From Marispirochaeta sp. (GTDB taxonomy: Bacteria > Spirochaetota > Spirochaetia > JC444 > Marispirochaetaceae): a stretch of 64,000 bases of DNA. A model generated the notes under the pieces. The model ran no database searches, was not told the DNA's origin, and saw nothing but the letters and a program-made list of their open reading frames with translations. A program made the position numbers and the translations under genes. Location of the stretch: contig CAXXFF010000002.1 in assembly GCA_963676835.2 (NCBI GenBank), forward strand, positions 109,344 through 173,343, read 5' to 3'. Positions 33,801 to 52,702 of the stretch are shown here, piece by piece. Numbering within the stretch: position 1 is the stretch's first letter; each line of letters begins with the position of its first letter.

Positions 33801-35729
33801 GATTCCATCTATATCGAACTTCTCTATGAGGGTGCAGACTGAATCGGCCAGCCATTCCCAAACCGCAAATTTCCGGTAATTGAGAAGCTTGCCGTCATTC
33901 CAGCTGCCGTAGCGGCCGTCTGTAGAGCCCCGTACTACAAGATTGCCCTGACTGTCGTAGCAGCGTACTGCCATTTCATCCGGAAGCTCCTCAGAGCGGC
34001 GGTTAAGATGGGGAATAATATCAACAATAATCTTTATTCCCAGGCGGTGGGCCTCTTCGACCAGGCCGAGAAACCCCTCCTCCCCGCCGAGGGCCGGCTC
34101 AAGGGCGGTAAGACTCATGGGAGCGAAGGGAGAAGGCGATCTCGCCTCCTCTGCCCAGTCTTCCCGGTTGCTCCCCCGCTTCTGTATTCCAAGAACATAC
34201 AGGGCGCTGATGGAATAGCGGGATTTGAGATCCTCCAGATGAGCCCTGATATCACCGAAGGTACCGGTACGGATGATCTGCCCGGACTCATTGAACACCA
34301 TCCCGGGATTTTCAGAGCCCCAGTAGAGCCTGGTGTGGCCGTGAATATCGGGAAATATCTCGAGGACAAGCTCTCCATCCAGGCTTGGCTGAACATTCAG
34401 ACGTCCGCCGCTTCCGTCCACCCAGCGGGGCCCGTTCTTCAGATTACGGTAGACCACCCAGTCATAGCTCCCCAGGGTACGGAAGATTCTGGAAACCTCC
34501 CATATGCCGCTCTCCCGGGAGTAATTGAGGGTGATATCGGTATAATCGAGATTTCCGTCTACAAAAAGCTTCTCCGCCGATCGGTCCCCGTAGATACGCA
34601 GAAAATAACCGGTCTTGCTGCGGGGGAGCTCAAATCTGAAGGTGTGGCTGGTGCCGGCATCTATGGTGACAAACTGAGTTGCCAGGGGAGCATCAAATTC
34701 CTTGGGGGCAAAAACACGTTCAAGAAGGATATTTGCCCGGTTACGGATTTCATGAATATCATGTCCTGAAGCGGCAACAAGCAGTCTCACCACTTCACGG
34801 AGGGAAGTGGCATCGTTATGGGTTTTAAACCGCCGGGCCAGTCTTTCCAGCTCATCCAGCGCTGTCCGGCACTGGTTATAATCGAAGAGACCGGACTCAC
34901 CGGGAAGCCTGGCATCCAGCTGCTCAAGCAGTGAGTTCCGCTGCTTTTGGGAAAAGGGCCGTGCTTTGCCTGAAATAGGCGCCGGAGGGGATTCAAATAC
35001 ACCGGCCCGGGTGATTACCCGGTCCAGCAGCAGATCAAACTGCCGTTCCTGCTCCCTGCTCAGCGGATCGGTGTGGGTGTATCCTGTCTCGACAGCCCGC
35101 TCCTCAATTCGGAGAAGGGTAAGAAACATCCCGTATGAATCCTCCAGCCCTTCGGAGAGATCGGCGTAGACACTGTCAGTCAGATTAAAGCCCAGATAGA
35201 TCGTGGGCTGCTCTTTTTCCGGCGGGCCTGCATCAACCCAGGCAAGGAGAGAAGTATCGGTGGAGATGTGAAAGATGGTAGGACTTGCCGGTCTTTCCCT
35301 GACAAAAACAAAACGGCGTCCCGAGAGCAGGGAATGATCAATATCTGAAAGAGCACGGTGAACCAGAACAAGTCCGTCAAGAAGACGGTCCGCGAGACGT
35401 CCCTGACTGGCCACTCTTCTTTTGCCGGACGGTTCATTCTCTGCAGCAGCAGCAAGCATCTGATCCCGAAGGGGAATCAGCAGGGAGGAGGCATCACTGG
35501 CATTTCCTTCAATCTGAAAGGCCTTGACTGCATTCAGATCCGGATAGAAAGGGAAACTCCTGGACTGACGAATAGATTCATCTATTTCATGTTCAATATC
35601 CCGGGCACTAAAGAGCTTCCGGTCCTCATCACGGCATCGAATCAGGGCGGAAGGAAAATGTACCGAATGGTTCCAGCTCATAGGCACCTCGCTTACGTCC
35701 ATAGTACCAGCCCCGGGGGTAACAGGCAA
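30807..35729 (-). CDS. Giant fusion protein: N-terminal region with no recognised catalytic motif (about 470 aa), GH13 alpha-amylase-family catalytic domain, linker, and GT5 glycogen/starch synthase domain
   Basis: GH13 conserved regions: IKIIVDIIPHLN (34003-34045), DGIRFDSSHA (about 33780-33816), NLAECYWG (about 33527-33549), LGNHDERR (about 33337-33360). GT5: LIFLAAEADPFSKSGGLANV (about 32396-32455) and EPGGISQLEAFACGSFVCARATGGLKDTV. Start uncertain: TTG 35729, ATG 35702, or ATG 35681 with a GAGGTG SD. Confidence 0.85.
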   Translation of the reverse strand: MPVTPGAGTMDVSEVPMSWNHSVHFPSALIRCRDEDRKLFSARDIEHEIDESIRQSRSFPFYPDLNAVKAFQIEGNASDASSLLIPLRDQMLAAAAENEPSGKRRVASQGRLADRLLDGLVLVHRALSDIDHSLLSGRRFVFVRERPASPTIFHISTDTSLLAWVDAGPPEKEQPTIYLGFNLTDSVYADLSEGLEDSYGMFLTLLRIEERAVETGYTHTDPLSREQERQFDLLLDRVITRAGVFESPPAPISGKARPFSQKQRNSLLEQLDARLPGESGLFDYNQCRTALDELERLARRFKTHNDATSLREVVRLLVAASGHDIHEIRNRANILLERVFAPKEFDAPLATQFVTIDAGTSHTFRFELPRSKTGYFLRIYGDRSAEKLFVDGNLDYTDITLNYSRESGIWEVSRIFRTLGSYDWVVYRNLKNGPRWVDGSGGRLNVQPSLDGELVLEIFPDIHGHTRLYWGSENPGMVFNESGQIIRTGTFGDIRAHLEDLKSRYSISALYVLGIQKRGSNREDWAEEARSPSPFAPMSLTALEPALGGEEGFLGLVEEAHRLGIKIIVDIIPHLNRRSEELPDEMAVRCYDSQGNLVVRGSTDGRYGSWNDGKLLNYRKFAVWEWLADSVCTLIEKFDIDGIRFDSSHAVPVMMRRNNYPFLHGDYRSRESLVEGEIIDNNREYDHYVTTGYYDSACAELIAVPFHYYLYQRIHRLLLRLGKKYFVNLAECYWGREQYLSRTGTVPYNSALFKICENIIHGKTDVREIYHIYQQHYPSILPPGAELLGILGNHDERRALNTFGARGFKAAVMLTGFLSRIILDYEGSAEGESWKVYLDNIYVNWNDFEREANRGTQGFYSNLYGNHRRQKGRAHLIWANNNMVAAAVRFSGRKGVLGAFNFADRDERVFLQFDDPSLPIDDDAFYQIIDPVYSTVTGQAGWYSGRELRESRIEAIIPHTDRYKLLNLTAETDEEKKAAAYPEVLKQSVFRLCSGNGRNYFLANFAFGELKARSGSYRKFRDFLLNTLLPLLDGHRETYHLAVKRFMYNFYRLEESRNAAAAVWYLITSLQADADEALSSLGASLSNAFRGGSLIFLAAEADPFSKSGGLANVVYELPRELSVMGEETVVITPYYKQGDDKVRKKMDESVRRYGIRYTGRTVRFYIQSREYEIGVHYGLVDGIHYYLLDHHEFFDGLYFGVTGEERLRRRTAFARASAEVIRTFELDPLAVFTNDAFTGIFCSIIRSDPGYAGHPPFDRASLVHIVHNGGWQYFDAYHRYEKGTDLYRLFNLGDHEYWRVEDPSDSGRINCMAAGIRSADRIVTVSPSYAEQLKIGADGMERILHDVTGINNGVGTDFRVRAMNKMREDNFIRRNLSGLKDAVSRDSLLKDQLEEKYPELLQPETVDTMKAGRRRQVLERMRIKLLVQLSRGLQVDPDAPLCVMIHRLTEQKGFQLLLEASRGIFSTLGYQGIIGGAVAGGDERGDELARGLLQLADFFPRQVSVGIGYQDVRIPLLGADLFLMPSMHEPGGISQLEAFACGSFVCARATGGLKDTVKSLARSGRSLQGNGVLFSDYTAPALYDAMQRFHRIFTEETPEKLSAARDNMIRNVYSWREPAEKYKDLVYSMKELVPGTDQTE

Positions 35730-38951: not shown

Positions 38952-39031
38952 ATGGTCAAGTCTGCCACTTCCTATTCGATCCGTTCGATTGTAGACTGTT
39001 TTCCAGGAAGCCCATAAGCAAAGGAGTTCTC

Positions 39032-40033
39032 ATGGCGTTTTTCGACCTGCCCCTGGAGGAACTTGCAATTTACCAGCCCGATGTCAAAGAACCTGATGAT
39101 TTCGATCAGTTCTGGTCGGATACTCTCTCGGAAAGCCGCAGTTTTGACTTGGATCCCCGGTTTGAGAAAAAAGATTTCGGTCTTACCCAGATAGAAACCT
39201 ACGATGTGAGTTTCCGGGGTTTTGCAGGACAGGAGATCAAAGGCTGGTTCCTGCTGCCCTCCGGAGCCGAGGGCCCTCTTCCGGGGATTGTGCAGTATAT
39301 CGGCTACGGCGGCGGCCGGGGCTTTGCCACGGACTGGCTGGGCTGGCCTGCCGCTGGTTACGGCTGTCTGGTAATGGATACCCGGGGCCAGGGATCAAAA
39401 TGGCGGAGAGGAGATACTCCCGACCTGGAACTCTCCGGCGGCAATCCCCAGTACCCGGGCTTCATGACCAGGGGTATTCTCAACCGCAATGACTATTACT
39501 ACCGCAGACTTATTACCGATGCAGTCAGAGCCGTGGAAACAATCCGCAGTCACCATAAAATTGACGGAGACAGAATTGCCCTTACAGGTATCAGCCAGGG
39601 AGGGGGTCTTTCCATTGCCGCTGCCGCCCTGGACGGAAAAGTTACCGCCGCAATGCCGGATGTTCCCTTTCTCTGCCATTTCCGCCGGGCATGCACCATT
39701 ACCGATATGCTACCCTATAAGGAGATCGCCGAGTTCTGCCACACCCACCGGGATAAAGAAGAGATAGTCTTCAACACATTGAACTATTTTGACAACCTCC
39801 ATTTTGCCAGACGGGCAGAGATGCCCGCGCTCTTTTCCACCGCCCAGATGGACCAGATATGCCCTCCTTCAACTGTCTATGCCGCCTATAACAGCTGGCG
39901 GGGAAAGAAAGAGATACGGACATATACCTTTAACGGTCACGAAGGGGGAGAAAGCTATCAGTTTCTCGAGCAGCTCTCTTTCCTGTCAGGAATGGCAAAA
40001 ATGACAAAAGCTGCCGGGCCAAACGGACAGTGA
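39032..40033 (+). CDS. CE7 acetyl esterase (acetylxylan esterase / cephalosporin-C deacetylase family)
   Basis: [25 protein letters not shown], nucleophile elbow [21 protein letters not shown], and His in FNGHEGG. Confidence 0.88.
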
Positions 40034-40380
40034 CAAAGGACTCTCTTCCGGGACTGCTGTTTCCGGTACTTACCGTTGCCCTACTGGCGGCAGGTCAGGT
40101 TTCCGCAAAATACGGTGCCTCCCTTAAAGCCGCTGGCAGCGGAGGTCTTCTCTATCTGCTCATTTCATACGGATGCTATATGCTCAGGGGAATTACCTGG
40201 GCAGGGACGCTGCGCCGCATGCCGGTAAGCCGGGCATACCCCTTACTGGCCGCTGGATATCCTCTTATTCTCATCCTTTCATTTGCGATTTTCCGGGAAG
40301 AGTTAAATGCCGTAAAAGCTGTGGGCGCCGCTTTCATTACCCTGGGAGTCATTCTTGCCGGAGCATCTTCTGATGAATAG
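40030..40380 (+). CDS. SMR/EamA-like small membrane protein, ArnE-like flippase subunit
   Basis: 116 aa, 4 TMS-like. The GTG start overlaps the esterase stop (GTGA). Confidence 0.65.
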
Positions 40381-40735
40381 CTGTACAGCCGCCGCAGAAG
40401 TAATTCTCACCGGGATAATAACCTCAACAGCACAGATCCTGCTGCGCCAGGCCGCCCCGAAGATTGTCTTTAACCGGGGACCGGTGAGTTTCATTGCTTC
40501 TGTTATCAATCCGCGTCTTGTAATCGGCGTATGTCTTGCCGCCGGGGCGCCACTGCTTTATTTTCATGCCCTCCAGACCCTTCCACTCTCCCTGGCCTTC
40601 GGCCTTTCAGCCCTCTCCTATATATGGGTACCCCTGGGAGGATGTCTCGTTCTCCGGGAACGCATTAACCGCCGGCGCCTTCTGGGAACTGCCGGCATCA
40701 TCACCGGACTGCTGATCTGGAGTATCGGGCTTTGA
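40373..40735 (+). CDS. SMR/EamA-like small membrane protein, ArnF-like flippase subunit
   Basis: About 120 aa, 4 TMS-like. The ATG at 40373 overlaps the preceding stop by 8 nt. Confidence 0.65.
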   Translation: MNSCTAAAEVILTGIITSTAQILLRQAAPKIVFNRGPVSFIASVINPRLVIGVCLAAGAPLLYFHALQTLPLSLAFGLSALSYIWVPLGGCLVLRERINRRRLLGTAGIITGLLIWSIGL

Positions 40736-41481
40736 AAATTACCCTGGTTATTCCCACATTTAACGGCTCCGAAGAGCTCAAGCGGCTTATGGAACAGGTG
40801 GAAGCAGTACTCGAACAGTCAGACTTTGCGGATTACGAAATAGTCCTGGTGGATGACGGAAGCTGCGGGGAATACCGGCTCTTTATTGAAGACAAACTGA
40901 TGCCGGAGCACCCCTGCCTGAGGGTACTCTACCTCCAGGGGAACTATGGGCAACAGCTTGCAACTATTACCGGACTAGCTCATGCCCGGGGAGATATAAT
41001 AGCCACCATGGATGATGACCTGGAACACCCCCCGGCACAGCTGACCACATTAATACAAAGTATCCGGGAAGGCAGCGACCTTGCTTATGGAATTGCCGAA
41101 ATTTCCTACGGTTCGCTGCTGAGAAAGTGGGGAGCCCTTCTCAGAGACCAGGTGTTTCGCCGCGTACTCAGGGTCCCTGCGGGGATACGGGTTTCAAGCT
41201 TCAGAGCCATGACCCGGGAGCTCGCCCTGGCGGTTATCGCCGGCCCCTGCCCCTGGCCCTACTTTTCCGCCATGGCCGTACGCCGCCATCCCCGTATTGC
41301 AAATATCGCCATGGATTTTCCCCGCAGAACCGACGGCAGGCAGAGAATTCTCCCTCTTGCCTTACTTCTGCTTAGAATCCTCCTGGCCTATTCTCTCCCG
41401 GGAGCAAAAAAGGCTCCACCGGTCAAGCTGCCTCCCCATGCGGAAATATTCTGCTCCCCCGCAGCGGGAGAGCTGCCGTGA
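40732..41481 (+). CDS. Family 2 glycosyltransferase (ArnC/GtrB/DPM1-like polyprenyl-phosphate glycosyltransferase)
   Basis: ITLVIPTFNGSE, EIVLVDDGS, IATMDDDLEHPP (DxD/ED region). The TTG start overlaps the preceding stop (TTGA). Confidence 0.85.
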   Translation: MKITLVIPTFNGSEELKRLMEQVEAVLEQSDFADYEIVLVDDGSCGEYRLFIEDKLMPEHPCLRVLYLQGNYGQQLATITGLAHARGDIIATMDDDLEHPPAQLTTLIQSIREGSDLAYGIAEISYGSLLRKWGALLRDQVFRRVLRVPAGIRVSSFRAMTRELALAVIAGPCPWPYFSAMAVRRHPRIANIAMDFPRRTDGRQRILPLALLLLRILLAYSLPGAKKAPPVKLPPHAEIFCSPAAGELP

Positions 41482-42722
41482 GTACAATCCTTGTATTGGG
41501 AGGCGGAAGCAGTCAGTTTTCGGGAATCCACCGCTGCCGCGAAATGGGACACCGGGTTATTGTTGCGGATATAAACGCGAATGCCCCGGGCTGTGCCCTT
41601 GCCAATGGCTTTGCGGAAGCCAGTACCTTTGATCCGATAGGGGTTATCCAGGCGGCAAAAAAACACAGGGCCGACGGGATTCTCACCATGGGAAGCGACC
41701 AGCCGGTCCTCACCCAGGCCATTGCAGCGGCCGAGCTGGGACTGCCGTCATTCCTTTCTCCGGAAGCAGCCCTGGCGGCAACCAATAAAAAAGCGATGAA
41801 GCTTCCACTCCGGTCGGCAGGCGTTCCGCTTGCCCCCTTTGATATCCTTTCAGCCGGAATCCGGCGGGTACCGGAGTCAATTAAACTCCCGGCAGTTATG
41901 AAACCCCTGGACAGCCAGGGCCAGCGGGGTATTTTTTACCTTACCCGGAGGGAGATTCCCCGGGAAAACATAGAGGAAACCCTCTCCTATTCGAGGCAGA
42001 CGGAATTTATAGTAGAAGAGTTTTATCCCGGAGGAGAGGTTACCCTCTCCGGCTGGCTCTGCGGGGGAGAACTGCAGGTGTTCAGTATCACCGACCGGGT
42101 AACCCGCCACCTGCTGCCCCGGCTGGGGGTTTGTTTTGCCCACCGTTTTCCCAGCATGTATGCAGACAGGAGAGCTGATATTACCGCTGTCGCCGAGGAC
42201 GCACTCAAGACCCTGAACATAACGGAAGGACCGGTTTACATACAGCTTTTTGTCGGCCCGGAAGGAATCGTTATTAACGAAGTAGCCTGCCGCCTTGGCG
42301 GTGCCTACGAGGATGAGTTTATACCTCTTATAACAGGTATAGATATCCTTGATCTGCTCATCCGGGGCAGCCTGGGTGAAAAAATACTGCCGGAAGAGAT
42401 TCGCCCTGCAATAACCAGCCCTCCGGCAGTGACTGTACCACTGCTCTTCTGCCGTCCGGGAAAAATAGATCACTGGCAGGGAACAGCTGAAGCCGCAGCA
42501 ATTCCAGGGATAGTGAATTATACACCGATTCTGCCGGCAGGCACCGTTATCGGCAACACGGAAAACTCTACCCAGCGGGCAGCCTACGCAATTATCAGCA
42601 GCCCCACTCCGGCGGAGGCAAACCTTTCTGTAGAGGAGTTTTTCCGCACCGCAGGCCCTGTTGATGAAGAAGAAAACCCCATGTTTATCGATTCCCGCCA
42701 TGAGATGTGCTTTCCTTTTTAG
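41478..42722 (+). CDS. ATP-grasp domain ligase
   Basis: ILVLGGGSSQ, NKKAMK, LPAVMKPLDSQGQRGIF, VEEFYPGGEVTLSGW, INEVACRLGG. The GTG start overlaps the GT2 stop (GTGA). Confidence 0.8.
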   Translation: MSTILVLGGGSSQFSGIHRCREMGHRVIVADINANAPGCALANGFAEASTFDPIGVIQAAKKHRADGILTMGSDQPVLTQAIAAAELGLPSFLSPEAALAATNKKAMKLPLRSAGVPLAPFDILSAGIRRVPESIKLPAVMKPLDSQGQRGIFYLTRREIPRENIEETLSYSRQTEFIVEEFYPGGEVTLSGWLCGGELQVFSITDRVTRHLLPRLGVCFAHRFPSMYADRRADITAVAEDALKTLNITEGPVYIQLFVGPEGIVINEVACRLGGAYEDEFIPLITGIDILDLLIRGSLGEKILPEEIRPAITSPPAVTVPLLFCRPGKIDHWQGTAEAAAIPGIVNYTPILPAGTVIGNTENSTQRAAYAIISSPTPAEANLSVEEFFRTAGPVDEEENPMFIDSRHEMCFPF

Positions 42723-42760
42723 TGTTATTTCTTAACGCCTTTCTCCGATCTCTCCGCTCT

Positions 42761-42796
42761 CTTCGATCACTTCGATAACTTCGATAACTTCGATCT
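42761..42796. repeat. Four copies of CTTCGAT at a strict 9-bp period
   Basis: cttcgatca cttcgataa cttcgataa cttcgatct, in the 136-nt gap between the ATP-grasp gene and the ABC substrate-binding gene. Confidence 0.9.
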
Positions 42797-42857
42797 TTAT
42801 GTTTCCGGCCCGGGAACTCTTTACTGCCGCCATGCCGAAAAGGTATTCTGAAGTTCT

Positions 42858-43868
42858 ATGACAGGATTTCCGGGTTTAACCAGCAGCTTTACAAGCTTTA
42901 CGTCAGGCAAATTATTTCGAATCATTACCTCTGCTCTGATACTTCTTTCAGCAGGACTTTTTTTCAGCTGTTCCGGTAAAGACAGCACCCAAACCCTGCG
43001 TATCGCAGAGCAGTATGGTCTGGCCTATGCTCCCCTTCAGCTTATCCGCCTGGAGAAACAGCTTGAAGAAGCAGGAATAAAGACGGAATGGGTCAAACTG
43101 ATCAACACCGCCTCCATCCGGGAAGCCATGCTGGCCGGCAGGGTGGATATCGGCTTTATGGGGATTCCCCCGTTTCTCATCGGCCGGGATAAAGGTATGG
43201 ACTGGAAGATTTTCACCGGACTCTGCCGGGCGCCCCTGGGGCTGGTCAGCCGCAACAGGGAACTCAACAGCCTCGCAGACTTAAGAGCGGAAGACAGAAT
43301 AGCCCTTCCCCAGCCGGGAAGTATTCAGCATATTCTTCTCTCCATGGCCGCCGAAAGGGAACTGGGGGACAGCCGCCGCTTCGACTCCAGGCTGGTTACC
43401 CTCTCCCACCCCGACGGATTTTCCGCACTCTCGAAGGGCAGCGGCATCAGCGCCCACTATACATCGCCCCCCTATCTGTTCGAGGAGCTTAAACTTAAGG
43501 GAGCACGACTGCTTTCGGACGGAGAAACAGCCTTCGGCGGCCCTTTTACCTTTATTGTGGGAGTTGCCCGGGGAAATCTGTCTATGGAAAAACAGAAACT
43601 GCTGCGGAACTTCAATCGTATTCTAATAGCAGCCATGGAACGTTTTGAATCAGATCCTGAAAGCACCATACAAACTCTGAAATCAGAATACGCCATTTCC
43701 GAGTCCCTGCTCACTGAGTACCTCCTATCCGAAGGGCTTGAATACACTCCGGAAATTCTGGGAGTAGAACGGTTTCAGGATTTTATGTACACCTCAGCGT
43801 TGATAGAATCTTCTCCGGCGAAAATTGATTCACTTATCCTGAAAGTGGCCGGAGAAGTACAGCAGTGA
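42858..43868 (+). CDS. NitT/TauT-family ABC substrate-binding lipoprotein (NMT1/SsuA-like)
   Basis: Lipobox FFSCSG. The PBP type-2 pattern is LRIAEQYGLAYAPL..AGRVDIGFMGIPPF. Confidence 0.75.
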   Translation: MTGFPGLTSSFTSFTSGKLFRIITSALILLSAGLFFSCSGKDSTQTLRIAEQYGLAYAPLQLIRLEKQLEEAGIKTEWVKLINTASIREAMLAGRVDIGFMGIPPFLIGRDKGMDWKIFTGLCRAPLGLVSRNRELNSLADLRAEDRIALPQPGSIQHILLSMAAERELGDSRRFDSRLVTLSHPDGFSALSKGSGISAHYTSPPYLFEELKLKGARLLSDGETAFGGPFTFIVGVARGNLSMEKQKLLRNFNRILIAAMERFESDPESTIQTLKSEYAISESLLTEYLLSEGLEYTPEILGVERFQDFMYTSALIESSPAKIDSLILKVAGEVQQ

Positions 43869-44659
43869 AAATCTCAGGATTTCTTAATTCCCTGAAAAAA
43901 ACTGCAGTCCGCCTCCTGATTTTCCTGCTGACAGGTCTGATCTGGGAAATCACCCGCAGGGCAAGCGGAGCACCGGAGGCACTGTTTCCTTCAATACCTG
44001 CAATTCTGAACCGACTTGCCATAGCCGTATTCAATGAGGATCTGAAAGAGCAGATACTCTTTTCCCTGATACTTATCGGTTCAGGCCTTGCCGCCGGTTC
44101 TGTAACCGCCGCCTTTCTGGTTTTCCTTGCAGAACTGCACCCCGTCATGGGAAAGGCAGTTGATACCGCTGCCGCTGTATTCCACCCCCTGCCGGGGATT
44201 GCCCTCCTGCCGGTGGTAATACTCTGGTTCGGCACCGGAATTCCTGCAGTACTTATTATAATCGTCCACTCTGTTCTCTGGCCCCTGACGGTGAATCTGA
44301 AAAGCGGGTATGAAAACCTGCCAGCCACATGGAGAATGGTGGCGGATATCTTCGGGTATTCCCCTGCAGAACGGTTTTTCCGCATAACCCTTCCCGGCTC
44401 CTTTCCTTTTGTGCTGTCAGGCCTCAAGATCGCCTGGGCAAGAGCCTGGCGGGCCCTCATCAGCGCCGAAATGGTTTTTGGTGCCGTAGCCTATGCCGGA
44501 GGGATCGGCTGGTTTATTTTTTCCCGGAGGATATTCATGGATACCGCCGGCATCTTTGCGGGGATTCTGGTGGTAGTCGCCCTGGGACTCATTGTCGAGC
44601 AGGGCCTGTTCCGCCCCCTTGAAAAAGCCGCCCGGAAAAGATGGGGAACCCTGCCGTGA
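43865..44659 (+). CDS. NitT/TauT-family ABC permease
   Basis: EAA-loop region ADIFGYSPAERFFRITLPGSFPFVLSGLKIAWARAWRALISAEM. Confidence 0.85.
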   Translation: MKISGFLNSLKKTAVRLLIFLLTGLIWEITRRASGAPEALFPSIPAILNRLAIAVFNEDLKEQILFSLILIGSGLAAGSVTAAFLVFLAELHPVMGKAVDTAAAVFHPLPGIALLPVVILWFGTGIPAVLIIIVHSVLWPLTVNLKSGYENLPATWRMVADIFGYSPAERFFRITLPGSFPFVLSGLKIAWARAWRALISAEMVFGAVAYAGGIGWFIFSRRIFMDTAGIFAGILVVVALGLIVEQGLFRPLEKAARKRWGTLP

Positions 44660-45393
44660 AGAACCTTCTCTCCTTCAGAAACACCCGTATTGAATATCCC
44701 GGAAGCCCTCGGCCGGTACTGCAGAATTTTTCCATGGAGCTTAAACAGGGAGAACTCCTCTGCGTTCTCGGACCATCGGGCTGCGGAAAATCCACCCTGC
44801 TTAAAGCCGCTGCAGGCCTTATCTCTCCCGCAAAGGGCAGTATAACTCTATCACCGTCATCTCCGGAGAGGCTGTACCCGCGGGTTCTGGTACTTCAGCA
44901 GGAGGATCAGCTCTTTCCATGGATGACTGTAGAGGATAATGCCGGCATTCCCTTGAAAAGAGGGGGAAACAAAAACTGGCGGCAGAAAACACGGGAAATC
45001 CTTGCATCCCTTTCCATGGGGGATGCCGCCGGACTCTATCCGCACCAGCTTTCCGGGGGTATGCGGCAGAGGGCGGTCCTGGCCAGGGCCCTTGCCGCGG
45101 AACCGGAACTGCTGATGCTCGATGAACCCTTTGCCCATCTGGATGCCTCGGTGCGCTCATCCCTGCAGCATCTGGTAACAGATATCTGGCAGCAAAAAGA
45201 GAGCATGCCTTCCACGATTCTGTTTGTTACCCACGATATACAGGAAGCCCTGGTTCTGGCCTCAAGGATTCTGCTGTTTGACAGTAAAGGAAATATCCGG
45301 GAAGACAGAATAATAGAACTCCCCCGTCCGCGGGATCCCTTTGACGAAGAACTTGTTGCCATGGTCAGGGAAATCAGGAATCTCCTGGACTGA
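44641..45393 (+). CDS. NitT/TauT-family ABC ATP-binding protein
   Basis: Walker [10 protein letters not shown], signature LSGGMRQR, Walker B LLMLDEPF. Confidence 0.9.
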   Translation: MGNPAVKNLLSFRNTRIEYPGSPRPVLQNFSMELKQGELLCVLGPSGCGKSTLLKAAAGLISPAKGSITLSPSSPERLYPRVLVLQQEDQLFPWMTVEDNAGIPLKRGGNKNWRQKTREILASLSMGDAAGLYPHQLSGGMRQRAVLARALAAEPELLMLDEPFAHLDASVRSSLQHLVTDIWQQKESMPSTILFVTHDIQEALVLASRILLFDSKGNIREDRIIELPRPRDPFDEELVAMVREIRNLLD

Positions 45394-46963
45394 AATCGAG
45401 CCGGTAGATTCGAACCTTCCACTCTTCCCGGTAGCGGTAGGCAGCAATCCTCATCCCGTAACCCGGGCTGGAAAACTCTTTTATAAGAGTGCCATCATTT
45501 TTCAGCAGCTCCTTCATTTCCGGATACCAGTAGGCAATATTGCCGTACAGTACATTCCACACCGGTCTGCGGGAATAAATAAAATCCAGCTCATCCGACA
45601 GAATTACATACTCTACAGACCGTTCCTTCAGGTACTCATCCAGACTGATTCCCGCAGAGCGGAGTTCCGCAAGATTTCTCCAGTCATAAAACTGCCCACC
45701 CGTCCCGGTCACATATTCGCCATAAAGATTACTCACTACTGTAGAATCCGCAGACACCACATCCCGGATCTCTCCCATAAAGGACTGAAAGGACTCGGTC
45801 TCCCGGGAAATATCAGACAGGGAAAACCGGATATTTGCGGCCAAAAGAAGAACCGGAATCACCAGCAGGAGTTTTTTCAGCATGAAATTCCCCGCAGGAA
45901 GAAGCGCACCGTAGATCCCCAGGTAAAAGAAAGGCAGGAGAAAAACGATTGAAGGCTGACTGTACTTACCAATAAGTGCCACAGCTATTGAAAAGCCCGC
46001 AAAGCCTGCCAGGGGCAGAGAATTACGGTTCCGGAAAAAATCGATAGTCAGAACCAGGGGAAACAGCAGCATCTGCAGCATAATCGGCGGAGTATGATAG
46101 GTCCCGCCTATGCGGAAAAACAGCTTTTTATAGAAAGCGGGAAGTCTCAGCCATTTAATATCCGCCGGCTCCAGAACACCCAGAGGCCTGCCGTAGGCCA
46201 GATAATCAGAAATAAACGATGCATTAAAAAGGAAGCTGAGCAGCACAAAAACCGACGCAAAAATCCCCGTAGACAGAAGAAAAAGAAGCCCCTCTTTTAG
46301 GGTCCGTTTTCTTAACCCGATTGAGACCAAAAGAAAAAGTCCTGCCGGCCAGGCAATAATAAAAGCATTGGGATGAAAACCGGCAGCAAGCCCCGTCACC
46401 GCCCCGGCAAAAAAGCCGCGCTTACCCGGGGGTAAATCATTTTTTGTCAGAAGAACCAGAACAGCAGTTTCCAGCAGAAGCAGCAGACTCTCCTGCCTGG
46501 CAAAATGGCTGCTGTAGATAAACTGAATATCCGCAGCCATTAGTAGGAGCATAAAAATTCGCAGGAATTCTGATCTTCTGTTTTCCGCCTCATTCCGCCC
46601 CTCCCCGCCATTGCCGGGAGAGATATTGTGCAGAAGACGCCAGAATAAGAGCAGACTTACTGTTCCGGCCAGAAGTGAGAGAAGCCGCACAGCAAAAAGG
46701 CTGTAGCCGAAGAGCAGAACAAAGGGTATCTGCAGCAGATGGTAGAGTATTTTTATTGCATGGGGATGCCGGGGATAAAGATCAAAGAAGTCTTCCGTTG
46801 CAGCAGGAGATCCGGCATCCATCATGGAGAGGGTAAGCCCGCTCAGCCATGGCTCATCGGTATGAACAAAAGGATAGGTATCCAGAAAAAGCAGGTTTAC
46901 GGCAAACCACGACAGAGCGATAAAAATGACTATATGAGCTTCGCGGAGTTTACAGTCGACCAT
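45374..46963 (-). CDS. GT-C fold membrane glycosyltransferase (ArnT / PMT_2 / GT39-83-like) with soluble C-terminal domain
   Basis: About 11 TMS. First-loop acidic motif FVHTDEPW, and a C-terminal soluble domain of about 150 aa. The start is 1 nt downstream of the tauB-like stop. Confidence 0.7.
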   Translation of the reverse strand: MVDCKLREAHIVIFIALSWFAVNLLFLDTYPFVHTDEPWLSGLTLSMMDAGSPAATEDFFDLYPRHPHAIKILYHLLQIPFVLLFGYSLFAVRLLSLLAGTVSLLLFWRLLHNISPGNGGEGRNEAENRRSEFLRIFMLLLMAADIQFIYSSHFARQESLLLLLETAVLVLLTKNDLPPGKRGFFAGAVTGLAAGFHPNAFIIAWPAGLFLLVSIGLRKRTLKEGLLFLLSTGIFASVFVLLSFLFNASFISDYLAYGRPLGVLEPADIKWLRLPAFYKKLFFRIGGTYHTPPIMLQMLLFPLVLTIDFFRNRNSLPLAGFAGFSIAVALIGKYSQPSIVFLLPFFYLGIYGALLPAGNFMLKKLLLVIPVLLLAANIRFSLSDISRETESFQSFMGEIRDVVSADSTVVSNLYGEYVTGTGGQFYDWRNLAELRSAGISLDEYLKERSVEYVILSDELDFIYSRRPVWNVLYGNIAYWYPEMKELLKNDGTLIKEFSSPGYGMRIAAYRYREEWKVRIYRLDFSPGDS

Positions 46964-46964
46964 A

Positions 46965-47729
46965 TCAGGCCCAGATATACTTGAGAACTTCCTCTCTCAG
47001 GGCGACAAACTCAGGTAAAGATTTTATCTCCCGGCTGTCCCGGTCGGAGTAACCGGAGCTGAACGGCGTCTCCACCTTCTGCAGAATCCGTCCGGGAAGT
47101 TCAGACATCACATAAACCTGAGTGGAGAGATAAATAGCTTCTTCAACGCTGTGAGTAATGAATAACACAGTTTTCCGGGTTTCCCTCCACAGGCTCAGGA
47201 GCTCTTCCTGAAGGTGCTCACGGGTAAGAACATCCAGCGCTCCGAAGGGTTCATCCATGAGCAGAATATCCGGATCATTGGCAAGAATCCGGGCAATGGC
47301 TACCCGCTGCTGCATTCCCCCCGAAAGCTCATAGGGCTGCATGTGGCCGAAATCCGACAAATGAACCCTGCGCAGGTTCTCCTCAACAATTCTCTTCTGC
47401 TCCGATCTGGCAACTCCCCGCATTTTCAGCCCGAAGGCGACATTCTGTTCCACATTGAGCCATGGATAGAGGGAGGGCTTCTGGAATACTATCCCCCGGT
47501 CCTTTCCGGGGGCTGTCAGGGGGGCACCCTTTTCCATAATCGTACCCCTGGTCGGGGGAAGAAACCCGCCGATAACGTTAAGCAGGGTCGACTTTCCGCA
47601 GCCCGAAGGGCCGACAATACTGATAAAATCACCCTGATTCACCGTCAGGGAAACATCCTGTACCGCGGAAAGAGGACCCTTTTTTGTCTCAAAGTCTACG
47701 GATATCCCGGAGAGTTCCAGAAGATTCAA
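46965..47729 (-). CDS. tauB: Taurine-type (NitT/TauT) ABC ATP-binding protein
   Basis: [29 protein letters not shown]. Confidence 0.85.
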
Positions 47730-47733
47730 ACTG

Positions 47734-48762
47734 CTACTGCCCCAGAGCCTCTTCTATATACTCAGGATGAAGAGCCGCCTTGAAGGCATCAATATCGGGA
47801 GACGAGATAATGGTCTGCTGGGTAACCAGAAAATCCGCAGTTGCCTTCAGCACACCGGCAAGATCTCCGATCTGCCCCTGTGTTCCCATATACCGGGAGG
47901 AGATCTGGTCTTCTCCGGTCAGCAGCACCAGACTTTTCATCTGCCGGGCAGCCTCTGCCTCGGGAATATCGAACTGACGGCTTACTGCAGCAGCAGCCTC
48001 ACTGCTGTTTTCATTGTAAAAATCTACAGCACGGATCTCGCTCTTTATATACTTTGTCACCAGGTCGGGGTATTTTTCGGCGAACCCCTTTCTAACCACG
48101 GTAATATCTCCGGTAAGGTATCCGGCCGCTGCCAGTTTTCTGGAGTAGACAACAACCTTACCGCCACTCTCAACCATTTTTGCAAGAGTGGGCTCCCAGA
48201 TAAAGCTGCCGTCAATATCTCCCCGGTGCCAGGCTGCCAGGGCATCAGGAGGCTGCATATCAAAAATATCAACAGTTTCGGGATCTACCCCTTCAAGCTC
48301 CAGGGCTGCCAGCAGATGATAATGAGTGGTTGCACCAAAGGGAACAGCAATCTTCTTGCCCGCAAGGCTCTTTACATCGGTAATGCCAGAATCGTTTTTA
48401 ACCACCAGAGCCTCATTGTCTCCGATAATATCGTGTATCCAGATCACATCGAAGGGAACCTTGTTGGCAATACCCGCAGCAATTCCACTGCTTCCGGAAA
48501 GACCGATATCAATACTTCCCGCGGCAAGGCCAGTATTGAGTTCTGATCCCGAGTTCAGCTGAACCCATTCCACCAGAATACCGGTCTCCTCTTCGAACCA
48601 ACCAAAATCCTTGGAGATTATCTGGCCGTTTGGTATGGCCTGAAATCCGATAACGATCTTTTCCGGAGCACCGGAAGCGGATTCTTTATTCCCTGCAGCT
48701 GCAGCATCAAGTGCAAACAGTGCAAGAAGAGACAGCAGTACGATTCCTTTCTTCATAGTCAA
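47734..48762 (-). CDS. tauA: TauA-like taurine/sulfonate-binding periplasmic protein
   Basis: Blocks I recognise from E. coli TauA: GDNEALVVK, GKKIAVPFGATTHYHLLAAL, QPPDALAAWHRGDIDGSFIWEP, VVRKGFAEKYPDLV. Confidence 0.8.
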   Translation of the reverse strand: MTMKKGIVLLSLLALFALDAAAAGNKESASGAPEKIVIGFQAIPNGQIISKDFGWFEEETGILVEWVQLNSGSELNTGLAAGSIDIGLSGSSGIAAGIANKVPFDVIWIHDIIGDNEALVVKNDSGITDVKSLAGKKIAVPFGATTHYHLLAALELEGVDPETVDIFDMQPPDALAAWHRGDIDGSFIWEPTLAKMVESGGKVVVYSRKLAAAGYLTGDITVVRKGFAEKYPDLVTKYIKSEIRAVDFYNENSSEAAAAVSRQFDIPEAEAARQMKSLVLLTGEDQISSRYMGTQGQIGDLAGVLKATADFLVTQQTIISSPDIDAFKAALHPEYIEEALGQ

Positions 48763-48822
48763 TCCTCTTGTTCTTTATATTTTTCTGCCCTTTATACAAG
48801 GCCTCTTATACCTGTTGGATTT

Positions 48823-49614
48823 TTATACTTTCCCTTTCCAGGGAACGATCATCAGCTCGGCTATCCGGATAATCCTGTCCAGAATTATCCCGGTTATTCC
48901 CATAACAATAATCCCCATAAACATCACATCGCCCCGTAAGAATTTTCCCGCATCAAGCACCATCCAGCCGATACCGGAACGTGCCGCCACAATCTCCGAG
49001 GAGACAAGGGTGGTGTAGGTAAATCCTATACTGACCCGCATCCCGGTGAAAATACCCGGCAGACAGGAGGGAAAAATAACATGTACTAAAGTCTTCCATT
49101 TCCCCGCCCCGAGAGACCGGGCAACATGCACTCTCTCCATGGGGACAGAGGCAACAGCCGCCATGGCATTAATAGACAAAGGAGGAAAAGCAGCCATAAA
49201 AAGAAGGGTGATCTTCGATGCATTGCCAATGCCCAGCCATATAACCAGAATAGTGTAGTACGCCAGAGGCGGAAGGGGCCGGTAGAATTCAACCAGGGGA
49301 TCAAAAACTGCCTTCACCTTTCTGCTGTAGCCCATAAACATGCCTAAGGGGATGGCCACAATACAGGCTAAAAGAAAACCGGAAATAACCCGAAACAGAC
49401 TGTCCCCTAAATGGTCCAGCAGTGTTCCTCCCCGGTACCCGTTAAGTGCGATATCCTTGAAGGCCTGAAAGACGCTGGCAGGAGTTGGGATAAAGTACTC
49501 GGGGAAAATCTTCAGACCGGCAATAACCGTCCAGGCCAGTAAAATGGCCAGAACCGACAGTACCGAGATAATAAATTCACTTATTCTTTCTTTATCGTAC
49601 TTCTTCATTCCCAT
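48823..49614 (-). CDS. tauC: Taurine-type (NitT/TauT) ABC permease
   Basis: EAA-loop ARSLGAGKWKTLVHVIFPSCLPGIFTGMRVSIGFTYTTLVSSE. Confidence 0.85.
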   Translation of the reverse strand: MGMKKYDKERISEFIISVLSVLAILLAWTVIAGLKIFPEYFIPTPASVFQAFKDIALNGYRGGTLLDHLGDSLFRVISGFLLACIVAIPLGMFMGYSRKVKAVFDPLVEFYRPLPPLAYYTILVIWLGIGNASKITLLFMAAFPPLSINAMAAVASVPMERVHVARSLGAGKWKTLVHVIFPSCLPGIFTGMRVSIGFTYTTLVSSEIVAARSGIGWMVLDAGKFLRGDVMFMGIIVMGITGIILDRIIRIAELMIVPWKGKV

Positions 49615-49699: not shown

Positions 49700-50983
49700 T
49701 CAGTTAACGCAGCTTGCCGCCGTTTTTCTGGCAACCACGTTGCCGATGATTCCTCCGCCTGTCAGGGCTGCAAGGAAAATCCATCCCGAAAGGGAAAAGT
49801 TGGCAATGGGAGTATACAGAGCACCCACGTTGCAGCCGTTGGCAAGACGGGTTCCAAATCCCATAAAGAGACCGCCCATGGCGAAGAACACAACCTGCAA
49901 AGGCTTAACCTTAAGCTCCGAGGTGAAAGTTGCCTTGAAGGTACCTGCCAGAAGAAGAGCTATAAGAGTACCAAGCACAATGCCTATGTTCTGCACCGAA
50001 ACGGGATTAACAAAAATGGATGTTTCAAAAAAGCCTGCCGGCATATGGGTAAATGCTGCAATGGATTCTGAAGAAACTCCAAAGAGCATCAGAAGCTTGC
50101 CAAACCACATACCGTAAACAGTGGAAGCCCCCCACCCTGCTTTTGTAATACCCATAAGCAGAGAAAAGACCACGGCAATTACAATTGCCCCGGTTCGCAT
50201 CTGCCAGGGACGGACAAAAAGCATATCATAGGTCTCACTGCTGAAAAGCTTGAAGGGTTTTGCAGCTCCCCGCTCTTCAAGAAGCCTGTTCTGCTCAAGC
50301 TCTGTTCCTACACCGGAAAACCGGTTCGCAGCAATCTGCTTATCTTCATATTTCCTGGCAAGCCAGGCGACCAGAGCCGCCAGCAGCACAGTAAGAATCA
50401 CCGCACCAAGGTAACCGCTCATACCGTCCCACATAAACAGATCCGGAAGATAGACACCGCCGGCAAGCTGCTCGCCGGTAACGGTGGAAAACCAGGAATC
50501 CGTAACCCATGATGCGGTCTTCTGTACAGGAAACCCGATAAAAACTCCAAAAGCGAAGAACACCAGGGTGGCTGCTGCCCGGGGAAGTCCGGTCACCAGG
50601 TCGGTAAGTACTCCCGAAGCACAGCACGAGGAAAAGGTCATACCGAAACCGAAGGAAAGACCACCGAGGATAAGCCCCAGGTTAATAGGGTTAACCCACA
50701 GGTTGTAGCTTGTGGCGTCTACTCCGTAGAGAAAAGCCACTGATACTGCAGCAGTTCCGGCAAACATCCACATAAGTACCCGCATCAGCTTTGCTGACCC
50801 GGTTCTGTATGCCCGGTTAACGCTTCCGGCAAAGCCCATAAAGGCCCGGGTCAGGGCATAGCCGAACCCGATTCCCGCCAGCAGCCGGAAGAAGAGCATC
50901 TGGGTACCCAGAAAAGCTCCGCCGAAAATCAGTACAACTGCAATCAGGGCAAAGCCCAGAATATTCTCAATTTTACTGTTCAT
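49700..50983 (-). CDS. YeeE/YedE family sulfur-compound transporter (long, 427 aa)
   Basis: Two sulfur-transport repeats with conserved Cys motifs: FSSCCASG and LANGCNVGALY. Confidence 0.85.
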   Translation of the reverse strand: MNSKIENILGFALIAVVLIFGGAFLGTQMLFFRLLAGIGFGYALTRAFMGFAGSVNRAYRTGSAKLMRVLMWMFAGTAAVSVAFLYGVDATSYNLWVNPINLGLILGGLSFGFGMTFSSCCASGVLTDLVTGLPRAAATLVFFAFGVFIGFPVQKTASWVTDSWFSTVTGEQLAGGVYLPDLFMWDGMSGYLGAVILTVLLAALVAWLARKYEDKQIAANRFSGVGTELEQNRLLEERGAAKPFKLFSSETYDMLFVRPWQMRTGAIVIAVVFSLLMGITKAGWGASTVYGMWFGKLLMLFGVSSESIAAFTHMPAGFFETSIFVNPVSVQNIGIVLGTLIALLLAGTFKATFTSELKVKPLQVVFFAMGGLFMGFGTRLANGCNVGALYTPIANFSLSGWIFLAALTGGGIIGNVVARKTAASCVN

Positions 50984-51001: not shown

Positions 51002-52702
51002 TCAGTCAAAGTTGTAACCGGTGAGTATGGGTTCCCTTCCGCTTACCTGATCATTGTAGTATTCGAAAAAGGAAATTCCCATAAATCCGCCGGAAATATT
51101 TATTACTTCATCCCAACCGCGGTTTTTCAGCGCCATAACAGCATTGTAACTTCTCTGTCCGCTTCGGCAGTGCAGGTAAATCGGCTTGTCTTTGGGGAAC
51201 TCATCAAGCCGTTCTCTGAGCTGACTCAGGGGAATATTAACCGCACCCTTAAGATGTGACTGTTCATATTCGTAGACTTCCCGAACATCAAAGATAGCAG
51301 CCCCGCTTTCTACCAGGCCCCGGACATCGCTGACATTTACCTGCCGGAAATCATCATGGAGAAGGTTGGTTCCTACATAGCCTGCAAAGTTAACCACGTC
51401 TTTTGCGGTGCCGAAGGGGGGCGCATAACAGAGCTCAAGGTCTTTCAGATCATGGATGGTTCCGTTGAACTTGATCACCGTTGCAATTACATCGATTCTC
51501 TTGTCAACATTTCCTTTTCCAATTGCCTGGGCTCCAAGGATTTTTCCGGTGGGGATTTCATACACAAGCTTGAAATGAAGGCTCTTGCTGGAAGGCATAA
51601 GCCCGACCTTGTCTCCGGGAATAATACGTACACAGCTGTAATCGATCTTCAAACCGCTGTGCTGAATAAATCCACAGGTCAAACCAGTGGAGGCGGCATT
51701 GTAATCAAACACCTTCAGAATTGAAGATCCGATATAGCCGCGGTTATCCACATACTGCTTATTGATATGGTCCGCAACACTTCTGGCCTGTTTCTGTGCC
51801 GGTCCGGCCAGGGGAAGCTTGAAATAGTCGTCAAAAAGGTAGCTGTATACTTCAATGGCATCACCAACAGCGTAGATATCCTTGTCTACTGTCCGGTAAT
51901 TCTGGTCCACCTTCATTGCACCGGTTTTTCCGAGCTCAAGGCCGGCCTGTTTTGCAAGATCTGTTTCCGGAGAAACTCCGATTGCCATTATTACAATGTC
52001 AGTTTCGATTTTCTTGCCCGATTCAAGAAGAATCGCATTGGTATCGAAAGCGGTCACCTTGTCGTCTACTATAAGGTTTACGCCCTGATCATGAATCTCC
52101 TTGTGGAGAATCTGCACCATATCGTAATCGAGGATTCTCAGAATCTGGGGCATAGCCTCAACGAGGGTCACTTCGTAACCGGCCTCTTTCAGGTTTTCAA
52201 CCGTTTCGATTCCGATAAATCCACCGCCGATTACACTGATCTTCTTAACATCCTTATTTCTGATTGCTTTGGCAATTTTAGCAATGTCTACTACATTTCG
52301 AATGGTGTAATGATTTACCTTCTCAATACCAGGAATAGGGGGAACAATAGGTTTTCCGCCGGGAGAGAGTATCAGCTTGTCATAAGACTCGGTATAGGTC
52401 TTTCCTGTATCAAGATCGGCAACAGTGACTTCTTTGGCCTCTCTGTTAATCGCAACAACTTCATTATTTATACGTACATCAATATTGTACTGTTTCTTGA
52501 AGAGCTCAGGCGTCATAAGGACAAGATCTTCAGCCTTTTCGATCATTCCGCTCAGATGATAGGGAAGACAACAGTTGGAAAAGGATACGTTCGGACCTTT
52601 CTCAAATACAATTATCTGATCTTCTTCACTGTGTCTTCGAAGCCGTGCAGCAGCTGATGCACCTCCGGCAACACCGCCGACAACAAGCATTTTTCTTGAC
52701 AT
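51002..52702 (-). CDS. CoA-disulfide / persulfide reductase with C-terminal rhodanese domain (Npsr-like)
   Basis: VVGGVAGGASAA, active-site SFSNCCLPY, a second NAD(P)H GxGxxG (VIGGGFIGIE), and rhodanese IYLHCRSGQRS. Confidence 0.88.
   Translation of the reverse strand: MSRKMLVVGGVAGGASAAARLRRHSEEDQIIVFEKGPNVSFSNCCLPYHLSGMIEKAEDLVLMTPELFKKQYNIDVRINNEVVAINREAKEVTVADLDTGKTYTESYDKLILSPGGKPIVPPIPGIEKVNHYTIRNVVDIAKIAKAIRNKDVKKISVIGGGFIGIETVENLKEAGYEVTLVEAMPQILRILDYDMVQILHKEIHDQGVNLIVDDKVTAFDTNAILLESGKKIETDIVIMAIGVSPETDLAKQAGLELGKTGAMKVDQNYRTVDKDIYAVGDAIEVYSYLFDDYFKLPLAGPAQKQARSVADHINKQYVDNRGYIGSSILKVFDYNAASTGLTCGFIQHSGLKIDYSCVRIIPGDKVGLMPSSKSLHFKLVYEIPTGKILGAQAIGKGNVDKRIDVIATVIKFNGTIHDLKDLELCYAPPFGTAKDVVNFAGYVGTNLLHDDFRQVNVSDVRGLVESGAAIFDVREVYEYEQSHLKGAVNIPLSQLRERLDEFPKDKPIYLHCRSGQRSYNAVMALKNRGWDEVINISGGFMGISFFEYYNDQVSGREPILTGYNFD

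Follow-up and report, generated by a model that had tools for sequence, protein, structure and literature searches.

A conserved glycosyltransferase/ATP-grasp cassette beside a CE7 esterase gene in Marispirochaeta: a candidate Arn-like pathway of envelope decoration

Results

Five overlapping genes in Marispirochaeta

A 64,000-nucleotide stretch of Marispirochaeta sp. DNA (NCBI GenBank assembly GCA_963676835.2, contig CAXXFF010000002.1, positions 109,344 to 173,343 of the forward strand; hereafter the window, numbered from its first letter) contains five open reading frames (ORFs) chained on the forward strand at 39032-40033, 40030-40380, 40373-40735, 40732-41481 and 41478-42722. They encode, in this order, a CE7 esterase, two small membrane proteins (A and B), a GT2 glycosyltransferase and an ATP-grasp ligase. 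The esterase and protein A genes have GTGA in common (40030-40033), as do the GT2 and ATP-grasp genes (41478-41481), and the protein B and GT2 genes share TTGA (40732-40735). Genes A and B overlap by 8 nt (40373-40380), with the ATG of B at 40373 and the TAG stop of A at 40378-40380; the longest ORF version of B begins at TTG 40355. The ORF list and the raw sequence bear out all five ORFs and all four overlaps as given in a preliminary description of this DNA. On the same strand the chain is followed by the genes of an ATP-binding cassette (ABC) importer, and these converge on a gene for an ArnT-fold transferase. We consider below whether these genes act together, and what the esterase has to do with them.

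The small membrane pair, the glycosyltransferase and the ligase

Protein families were assigned with Pfam and NCBIfam profiles at their curated cut-offs. The first true cassette gene (40030..40380) encodes protein A, which has 116 aa and 3-4 predicted helices and is a putative ArnF/ArnE-like half of a lipid-linked-sugar flippase; protein B (40373..40735; 120 aa, 4 predicted helices) would be the ArnE/ArnF-like second half. Both are EamA-type proteins by Pfam, and their best NCBIfam matches are ArnF and ArnE. Protein A scored 44.8 bits against ArnF (cut-off 99) and 33.5 bits against ArnE, and protein B 37.4 bits against ArnE (cut-off 92) and 29.6 bits against ArnF, all below cut-off, such that neither protein reaches equivalog level. 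The profiles confirmed the families named in the preliminary description, except that its ArnE and ArnF labels are reversed, the first gene being nearer to ArnF and the second nearer to ArnE by score. In layout the two genes match an ArnE/ArnF pair, being adjacent DMT/SMR-like genes of the four-helix, ~110-130-aa type beside a GT2 gene, with hydropathy giving 3-4 helices.

The third cassette gene (40732..41481) encodes an ArnC-like GT2 polyprenyl-phosphate glycosyltransferase of 249 aa, made up of a catalytic domain (Pfam Glycos_transf_2, 86.8 bits) and interface helices. When a profile of this family was compared with PDB chains, ArnC was the best match (E 2.5e-52), with positions 2-222 (221 in all) aligned on ArnC residues 9-230, ahead of GtrB (1e-42) and DPMS (4.6e-33). 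The protein has the motifs DDG and MDDDLEHPP, with D94-D96 invariant, and so shows the GT-A domain with a DxD motif in the setting D-x-D-L-Q/E-x-P-P and the juxtamembrane helices of the ArnC/GtrB/DPMS type. Its best NCBIfam matches were ArnC and PgfS, the ArnC score of 73.3 bits falling short of the equivalog cut-off of 529. Four natural proteins (P0036, P0061, P0101 and P0114) fuse a GT2 domain at the N-terminus to an ATP-grasp domain at the C-terminus, in the order of the genes. The single hydrophobic helix of the GT2 (206-224) must be interfacial, since in these fusions it precedes a cytoplasmic ATP-grasp domain.

The ligase gene (41478..42722) encodes a 414-aa ATP-grasp carboxylate-amine ligase of the L-amino-acid-ligase type, as indicated by matches to Pfam LAL_C2 (45.2 bits, cut-off 29.4) and ATP-grasp_4 (27.9 bits, cut-off 27). 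Its structural model (pLDDT 95.2) has as nearest folds 4DIM, the L-amino-acid ligases RizA, BL00235 and BacD, and PurT. With BacD/YwfE, RizA, BL00235, LdmS and PurT, which form amides via an acyl-phosphate, it has in common the ATP-grasp fold with the LAL C-terminal domain. It differs from these enzymes in an identity of only 16-19%, in a closest solved relative, 4DIM, that has no known function, and in being encoded next to, and in some proteins fused to, a glycosyltransferase. The N-formylation of a sugar-linked amine is within reach of an ATP-grasp enzyme, as PurT demonstrates. The reaction in this case might be PurT-like formylation, PurK-like carboxylation or aminoacylation.

The importer and the ArnT-fold transferase

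The importer genes encode a lipoprotein substrate-binding protein (SBP) of the NitT/TauT (SsuA/TauA-like) family (42858..43868), a permease (43865..44659; Pfam BPD_transp_1, 57.6 bits) and an ATPase (44641..45393; ABC_tran, 112 bits). The SBP carries the lipobox LFFSC, scores 72.9 bits against NCBIfam SsuA_fam, below cut-off, and matches SsuA (2X26) and TauA (6SSY) in the PDB, which places it in the sulfonate/taurine/nitrate family. Its gene overlaps that of the permease by 4 nt (43865-43868).

A promoter-like element, TTTACT-N18-TATTCT (42820..42849, forward strand), ends 8 nt 5' of the SBP start codon. It is kept in the window and in three related loci (L001, L089 and L002), in which the flanking spacer is not, and no Shine-Dalgarno sequence can be read before the SBP ATG at 42858. 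From these features the ABC genes probably have a separate, near-leaderless transcript. A scan for sigma-70 consensus promoters gave nothing above background, and a consensus terminator scan found a weak terminator-like palindrome (42801-42817) and nothing else. No RNA family was matched anywhere in the window in an Rfam scan at gathering thresholds, and there is thus no riboswitch or leader to account for regulation. When we looked for RNA-seq data, the runs holding the locus were of DNA or of unknown type only.

The spacer between the ATP-grasp and SBP genes also contains four tandem 9-bp units (CTTCGATAA-like; 42762..42794, forward strand), and two more units lie upstream of the esterase gene (38975-38989), as TTCGAT hexamers with a 9-bp period. 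Matches to TTCGATNNNTTCGAT number 4 in the 64 kb, against 0.29 expected, and occur only at these two places. The downstream set sits within a genome-specific insertion of ~84 nt, and the orthologous spacers of L001, L089 and L002 are without it. TTCGAT-N3-TTCGAT was considered as a shared operator and rejected, since L001, L002 and six other loci lack it in the corresponding regions; we take the repeats to be a local tandem repeat and not a conserved regulatory site.

On the reverse strand, at 45374..46963, a gene convergent with that of the ABC ATPase encodes a 529-aa glycosyltransferase of the GT-C class, GT39/GT83-like, with an ArnT fold in its AlphaFold model. The 3' ends of the two genes overlap by 20 nt (45374-45393). 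Many loci show convergent overlaps of this kind, from -4 to -38 nt, which leave no space for terminators. The model (pLDDT 90.8) has as its top fold match ArnT with bound undecaprenyl phosphate (5F15, TM 0.60, E 5.8e-07), followed by STT3 and ALG9/12, and shows the multi-helix membrane domain and periplasmic C-terminal domain of a GT-C enzyme. The acidic motif of the first extracytoplasmic loop is also present, as D35 and E36, which are invariant or nearly so among 32 homologues. Sequence searches against the PDB and NCBIfam gave no match, such that fold comparison was needed, and the Pfam PMT_2 score (20.1 bits) lies below the cut-off of 26.1; many orthologues do carry PF13231 or PF02366, and homologues are named ArnT family or GT39 in their source annotations. 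Many of the closest homologues appear on the same contigs as ATP-grasp homologues. One nucleotide upstream of this gene, and co-oriented with it, is a second ABC importer (46965..49614, reverse strand; ATPase 46965-47729, TauA-like SBP 47734-48762, permease 48823-49614), whose SBP scores 235 bits against the NCBIfam taurine model and whose gene order is common to L001 and L064.

Conservation of the cassette

A scan of 185,579 species genomes with the ATP-grasp protein of the window as query gave 508 related loci, the closest of which, at 74% and 61% identity, are from Marispirochaeta. The best 80 of the 508, from Spirochaetia, Halanaerobiales, Clostridia, Desulfitobacterium, Acetobacterium and one Calditrichales genome, formed a panel in which all ORFs were searched with the window proteins; the denominators below vary by feature.

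GT2 lies directly upstream of ATP-grasp in 70 of 73 loci, at a junction of no more than +15 nt in 53 of 70 and of exactly -4 in 16 of 70. Downstream of ATP-grasp follows a set of SsuA/TauA-like SBP and permease genes, with or without the ATPase gene (63/74), and the convergent ArnT-like gene is present in 61 of 66 loci. The small membrane pair was found in 18 of 72, all spirochaetal. Directly 5' of GT2, 46 of 72 loci carry a WecE-type transaminase gene, and several also have RmlA and RmlB. In L085, a locus of the Clostridia type, the genes directly before GT2 include one for an RmlA-like enzyme, and two others exceed curated equivalog cut-offs, namely those for RmlB, at 421 bits (cut-off 365), and for a WecE-type dTDP-4-amino-4,6-dideoxyhexose transaminase, at 503 bits (cut-off 375). 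An ArnD-like deacylase is not among the conserved genes of the cassette loci.

The slot before GT2 in spirochaetes holds either the ArnE/F-like pair or a WecE-type transaminase (as in L044, L052 and L069), never both within 10 kb. In Clostridia-type loci the transaminase is present and there is no dedicated flippase gene. The complete genome OY763414.1 has the cassette and no transaminase gene close to it.

The preliminary description had proposed a shared function for all five genes of the chain. For genes 2-5 this is supported by the conserved order and by the fusions, and these comparisons point to a tightly packed unit that reaches on to the importer and the ArnT-fold transferase. It does not extend to the esterase, as described below.

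A candidate pathway of envelope decoration

We think it reasonably likely, judging from sequence families and structural models, that genes 2-5, the importer (42858-45393) and the ArnT-fold transferase (45374-46963) constitute an Arn-like pathway in which a sugar is assembled on a lipid carrier and used to decorate the envelope, with the esterase as an abutting backbone gene. By analogy with Arn, we infer the following course. A nucleotide-activated 4-amino-4,6-dideoxyhexose would be made by enzymes that, in this genome, would be encoded elsewhere than in the window. The ATP-grasp enzyme would N-acylate its 4-amino group with a small carboxylate or an amino acid via an acyl-phosphate, as the counterpart of N-formylation by ArnA, and the ArnC-like GT2 would load the modified sugar on undecaprenyl phosphate at the cytoplasmic face; these two steps could come in either order. 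The ArnE/ArnF-like heterodimer would then flip the lipid-linked sugar, and the ArnT-like enzyme would pass it to an extracytoplasmic acceptor, which might be a lipid, a wall polymer or a lipoprotein. The importer may supply or recycle the ligated compound, like choline uptake for the lic system. The Arn step that the extra enzyme takes is thus most plausibly the N-acylation of ArnA, by ATP-grasp, and not that of ArnD.

Several points weigh against this reading. The Arn-family equivalog scores are all far below cut-off, so that these proteins are analogues or distant homologues and not orthologues, and the GT2 is without the C-terminal transmembrane hairpin of ArnC. The 64-kb window has no WecE, RmlA, RmlB or ArnB-like gene and thus no DegT-family 4-aminotransferase, and the spirochaete loci with the small membrane pair have no WecE, RmlA or RmlB within 10 kb, so this lineage may use a different sugar. 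The model also leaves the strong linkage to sulfur-trafficking genes unexplained, and the esterase may have a lineage-specific accessory role. Finally, ATP-grasp was the bait with which the loci were collected, such that its presence in them is by construction, and the inspected loci are 80 of the 508.

An alternative, which we regard as unlikely, is that the ATP-grasp enzyme and the importer form a separate small-molecule module, for dipeptide synthesis or the salvage of sulfur compounds, that travels with an independent GT2/ArnT-like pair and with sulfur genes. The ligase does bear the LAL_C2 domain of dipeptide-forming enzymes, the SBP is SsuA/TauA-like, and the surrounding island is rich in sulfur genes; moreover, a link to sulfur amino-acid metabolism has been made for one L-amino-acid ligase, LdmS (PMC9486568). 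However, four independent proteins fuse GT2 and ATP-grasp with gene order kept, nearly all loci have ATP-grasp between GT2 and the ABC genes, mostly at the short junctions given above, and the transaminase encoded directly upstream is an obvious source of the amine substrate. The GT2 fusions and the adjacent transaminase argue for a sugar-linked amine, over two free L-amino acids, as the substrate of the ligase.

The sugar might instead be a uronic acid whose carboxylate is amidated by the ATP-grasp enzyme with an imported amine such as taurine, although this seems to us rather improbable. ATP-grasp amidation of glucuronate is known in Campylobacter capsule synthesis. At this locus, the SBP of the cassette belongs to the sulfonate/taurine family, the TauA-like SBP of the second importer is co-directional with and directly upstream of the ArnT-like gene, and the spirochaete loci that bear the pair are without the transaminase. 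Against this, the WecE-type transaminases found before GT2 in most loci, accompanied in several by RmlA/RmlB, point to a 6-deoxy amino sugar, which has no carboxylate; the nearest match of the GT2 is ArnC, which acts on a 4-N-acylated amino sugar; and UDP-glucose dehydrogenase was not seen in the loci.

Linkage to sulfur genes

The cassette lies in an island of ~15 kb (40030-54858) together with YedE-type sulfur genes and lipoprotein rhodaneses. Beyond the second importer, the reverse strand encodes a YedE/YeeE-type sulfur transporter (49700..50983; Pfam Sulf_transp, 170.6 bits) and a CoA-disulfide-reductase-like protein with a rhodanese domain (51002..52702; Pyr_redox_2, 205 bits; Rhodanese, 70 bits). 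The right end of the island is formed by forward-strand genes for two tandem-domain rhodanese lipoproteins (52958-53881 and 53938-54858; Pfam Rhodanese, 113 and 94.5 bits), with the lipoboxes LVGAC and VFSAC and an Ala/Pro/Glu-rich linker. These features are also present in the orthologues of L085 (15451-17514) and L086 (16203-18069), and the orthologues in Clostridia and other spirochaetes all carry lipoboxes and are thus predicted lipoproteins. Among loci with full flanks, rhodaneses occur in 49 of 51 and YedE/YeeE-type transporters in 43 of 51, and the linkage between cassette and sulfur genes holds across phyla.

Related Marispirochaeta genomes have either both cassette and sulfur genes or neither, in one block between the esterase gene and orf124-MFS-GroEL, as is seen when the window (40030-54858) is compared with the Marispirochaeta locus L088 (7972-10168). 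The island has no clear GC signature, GC content ranging from 0.43 to 0.57 across 30-60 kb.

It is conceivable, as little more than a speculation, that cassette and sulfur genes are one system. The ATP-grasp enzyme would then add a sulfur-bearing acid or amino acid, such as cysteine or an imported sulfonate, to the 4-amino sugar, which would cross the membrane on undecaprenyl phosphate and be transferred by the ArnT-like enzyme either to the rhodanese lipoproteins or to the surface. The sulfur side of such a system would consist of the two extracytoplasmic lipoprotein rhodaneses, a YedE/YeeE-TusA importer and persulfide or thioredoxin-type reductases. If this were true, the product would be an envelope-anchored group that captures, traffics or detoxifies extracellular sulfane sulfur in anaerobes.

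The esterase is a backbone neighbour of the island

The first gene of the chain (39032..40033) encodes a CE7 acetyl-xylan esterase/cephalosporin-C deacetylase and a full member of that family: it matches Pfam AXE1 at 381.7 bits (cut-off 21) over model positions 1-319 of 321, and its translation contains the signature motifs of the Ser-Asp-His triad, DTRGQGS (RGQ), GISQGGG (GxSQG) and GHEGG (HE). The N-terminus is without a hydrophobic leader, and there is no signal peptide. The protein is >60% identical to hundreds of ~323-aa enzymes, including ones from Chloroflexota and Bacteroidota. Since its homologues all cover 96% of the query, the window copy carries a 10-residue C-terminal tail, which is unique to this genome and is its only difference from other CE7 enzymes. 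DNA alignment with L001 revealed a 19-nt insertion at the 3' end of the esterase gene, absent elsewhere, that shifts the frame beyond the ancestral stop and into the GTG of the next gene, thereby generating the -4 overlap of esterase and flippase genes. Esterase and cassette are spaced by +8 nt in L001 and by +34 nt in L089, and lie about 2 kb apart in L002 and L090.

In the panel the esterase gene was found in 2 of 64 loci, both from Marispirochaeta. In L088 the backbone, consisting of genes for a glucan synthase, an RRM protein, the esterase, a 656-aa protein, orf124, MFS and GroEL, is intact, without any of the island. L002 and L090 do have the island, and in them an opposite-strand gene for a protein of 643-645 aa lies between esterase and cassette. 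Other spirochaetes have unrelated genes upstream, and there the cassette begins with the first small membrane gene. These contexts, with that of L089, identify the esterase as a flanking backbone gene. The five-gene chain is therefore composite: a housekeeping-type cytoplasmic esterase of the local Marispirochaeta backbone, which only recently came to abut the cassette, adjoins the left end of the island. Co-transcription of esterase and cassette is very probable in this genome, and the esterase promoter probably drives the first operon of the island in this lineage.

The protein of 643-656 aa encoded between the esterase gene and the island site is conserved and has no Pfam match (L002 4531-6462, reverse strand; L088 7994-9964; L090 7430-9367); its gene is missing in the window, L001 and L089. 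Elsewhere in the window, an ORF of 1640 aa at 30807-35729 (reverse strand) is kept in all Marispirochaeta loci. It encodes a glycogen-synthase-like protein (Glyco_transf_5/Glycos_transf_1), with a faint alpha-amylase signal in orthologues.

The preliminary description had assigned the esterase a more intimate role, as an integral, stoichiometric partner of the flippase that deacylates the lipid-linked sugar before flipping, in the manner of ArnD. The overlap in the window does leave no space for a separate promoter, the two genes also adjoin in L001 and L089, and the cassette has no other conserved candidate for a deacylase. Nevertheless we judge this role very improbable. The gene is absent from 62 of the 64 related loci, the kind of finding on which the preliminary description had said its idea would founder; L088 has the esterase without the cassette; the intervening gene parts the two in L002 and L090; and the overlap itself was made by an insertion unique to the window, in a gene for an otherwise canonical 323-aa enzyme with close relatives in other phyla. 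ArnD is a metal-dependent CE4-type de-N-formylase, and CE7 enzymes are serine O-acetyl esterases. In keeping with this, the esterase is an alpha/beta-hydrolase, and no CE4 or ArnD model in Pfam or NCBIfam matched it. It shows no conserved co-occurrence with the GT2, flippase and GT-C genes and does not have the chemistry of a CE4-type de-N-acylase. We considered a lineage-specific ArnD substitute and rejected it because of this distribution and chemistry and because the overlap arose from an indel.

Start codons and junctions

Conservation of the junctions, which the preliminary description had proposed to check in homologous loci, holds inside the cassette and fails at the esterase: L001 has identical -8/-4/-4 junctions from protein A to ATP-grasp, and the spacing to the esterase varies as described. 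It had also named wrongly annotated GTG/TTG starts as a refutation of its idea; the non-ATG starts are supported both by N-terminal conservation and by GGAG boxes. The N-termini of both small membrane proteins match their L001 orthologues residue for residue, the ATG at 40373 being homologous to the L001 start. The beta-1 strand of the GT2, KITLVIPTFN, starts 2 codons past TTG 40732, and in the ATP-grasp protein the motif LVLGGGxxQ, of which G8, G9 and Q13 are invariant in 26 aligned homologues, begins four codons after GTG 41478. For this reason the source's 392-aa ATP-grasp call, from ATG 41544, is too short: it leaves out 22 residues (41478-41543) including the invariant GGG...Q nucleotide-binding strand. 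GGAG or GGGAG lies 7-9 nt 5' of ATG 40373, TTG 40732 and GTG 41478, and no usable Shine-Dalgarno sequence could be read upstream of GTG 40030.

That the overlaps are annotation artefacts, with true starts downstream and the genes expressed separately, could be suspected from the use of GTG or TTG by three of the four downstream genes and from the later start of the source's ATP-grasp call, but it deserves next to no credence in view of the conserved motifs 2-4 codons past the proposed starts, the same junctions in L001, the GGAG boxes before three starts and the lack of alternative in-frame starts ahead of the conserved elements. The overlaps of the chain are real yet unexceptional. A 4- or 8-nt overlap is an ordinary operon junction here and represents ordinary translational coupling.

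Discussion

The proposed pathway can be compared part for part with the Arn (PmrHFIJKLM) pathway, which makes lipid A aminoarabinose in Enterobacteria and Pseudomonas. The WecE-type, DegT-family 4-transaminase of 46 of 72 loci would correspond to ArnB; the GT2, for which ArnC is the best PDB match, would put a 4-N-acylated amino sugar on undecaprenyl phosphate as ArnC does; the paired small four-helix proteins would correspond to ArnE/ArnF; and the GT-C enzyme would correspond to ArnT, its top fold match. The differences are also considerable. The sugar is probably a dTDP-linked 4-amino-4,6-dideoxyhexose and not UDP-Ara4N, and an ATP-grasp ligase would N-acylate it in place of the folate-dependent formyltransferase of ArnA. 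There is no conserved ArnD-type deformylase, the GT2 has no transmembrane hairpin, and equivalog scores are far below cut-off. In contrast to Arn, an ABC importer is integral to the cassette, which is linked to sulfur genes, and it also occurs in Gram-positive Clostridia, organisms without lipid A.

The same logic of a GT2 polyprenyl-phosphate sugar synthase, a small flippase and an extracytoplasmic GT-C enzyme is seen in the Gtr, CsbB-YfhO and GtlA-GtlB systems and with PgfS of Streptococcus mutans. GtrB (1e-42) and PgfS (2.6e-20) are clear homologues of the cassette GT2. However, those systems have neither an ATP-grasp enzyme nor an ABC importer, and they use a GtrA-type flippase and GT-C enzymes from other families. 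Actinobacterial lipoprotein O-mannosylation by Ppm1/Pmt likewise combines a GT2 synthase with a GT39/PMT-type GT-C enzyme that acts on secreted lipoproteins, and lipoproteins (the two rhodaneses and the SBPs) are encoded beside the GT-C gene here; it differs in that the sugar of the cassette is not mannose and in the extra ligase and importer genes.

We found no paper describing the cassette when we searched the literature on this gene combination. Two leads from the literature were set aside as different systems, namely CfmP, a TupA-like ATP-grasp enzyme (PMC13419641), and LdmS (PMC9486568). The cassette itself thus appears undescribed, and it is a new variant within the Arn/Gtr kind of system.

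With regard to the esterase, these results show that a start/stop overlap alone is no proof that two genes act together if one of them lies at the border of an inserted island. Its coupling to the flippase, which had suggested an ArnD substitute, is a chance product of the gene neighbourhood and matters little.

The cassette is of wider interest. It has the appearance of an Arn-type lipid-carrier pathway that is unusual in two respects, as it includes an ATP-grasp ligase, which in some proteins is fused to the ArnC-like transferase, and an importer that depends on a binding protein. It is conserved in some 500 species genomes, from anaerobes such as Spirochaetia, Clostridia and Halanaerobiales. 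If the pathway were worked out, it would bring to light a new modification of the envelope, in diderm and monoderm anaerobes alike, and a new route to the N-acylation of sugar amines, and it might account for the puzzling link to extracellular sulfur handling.

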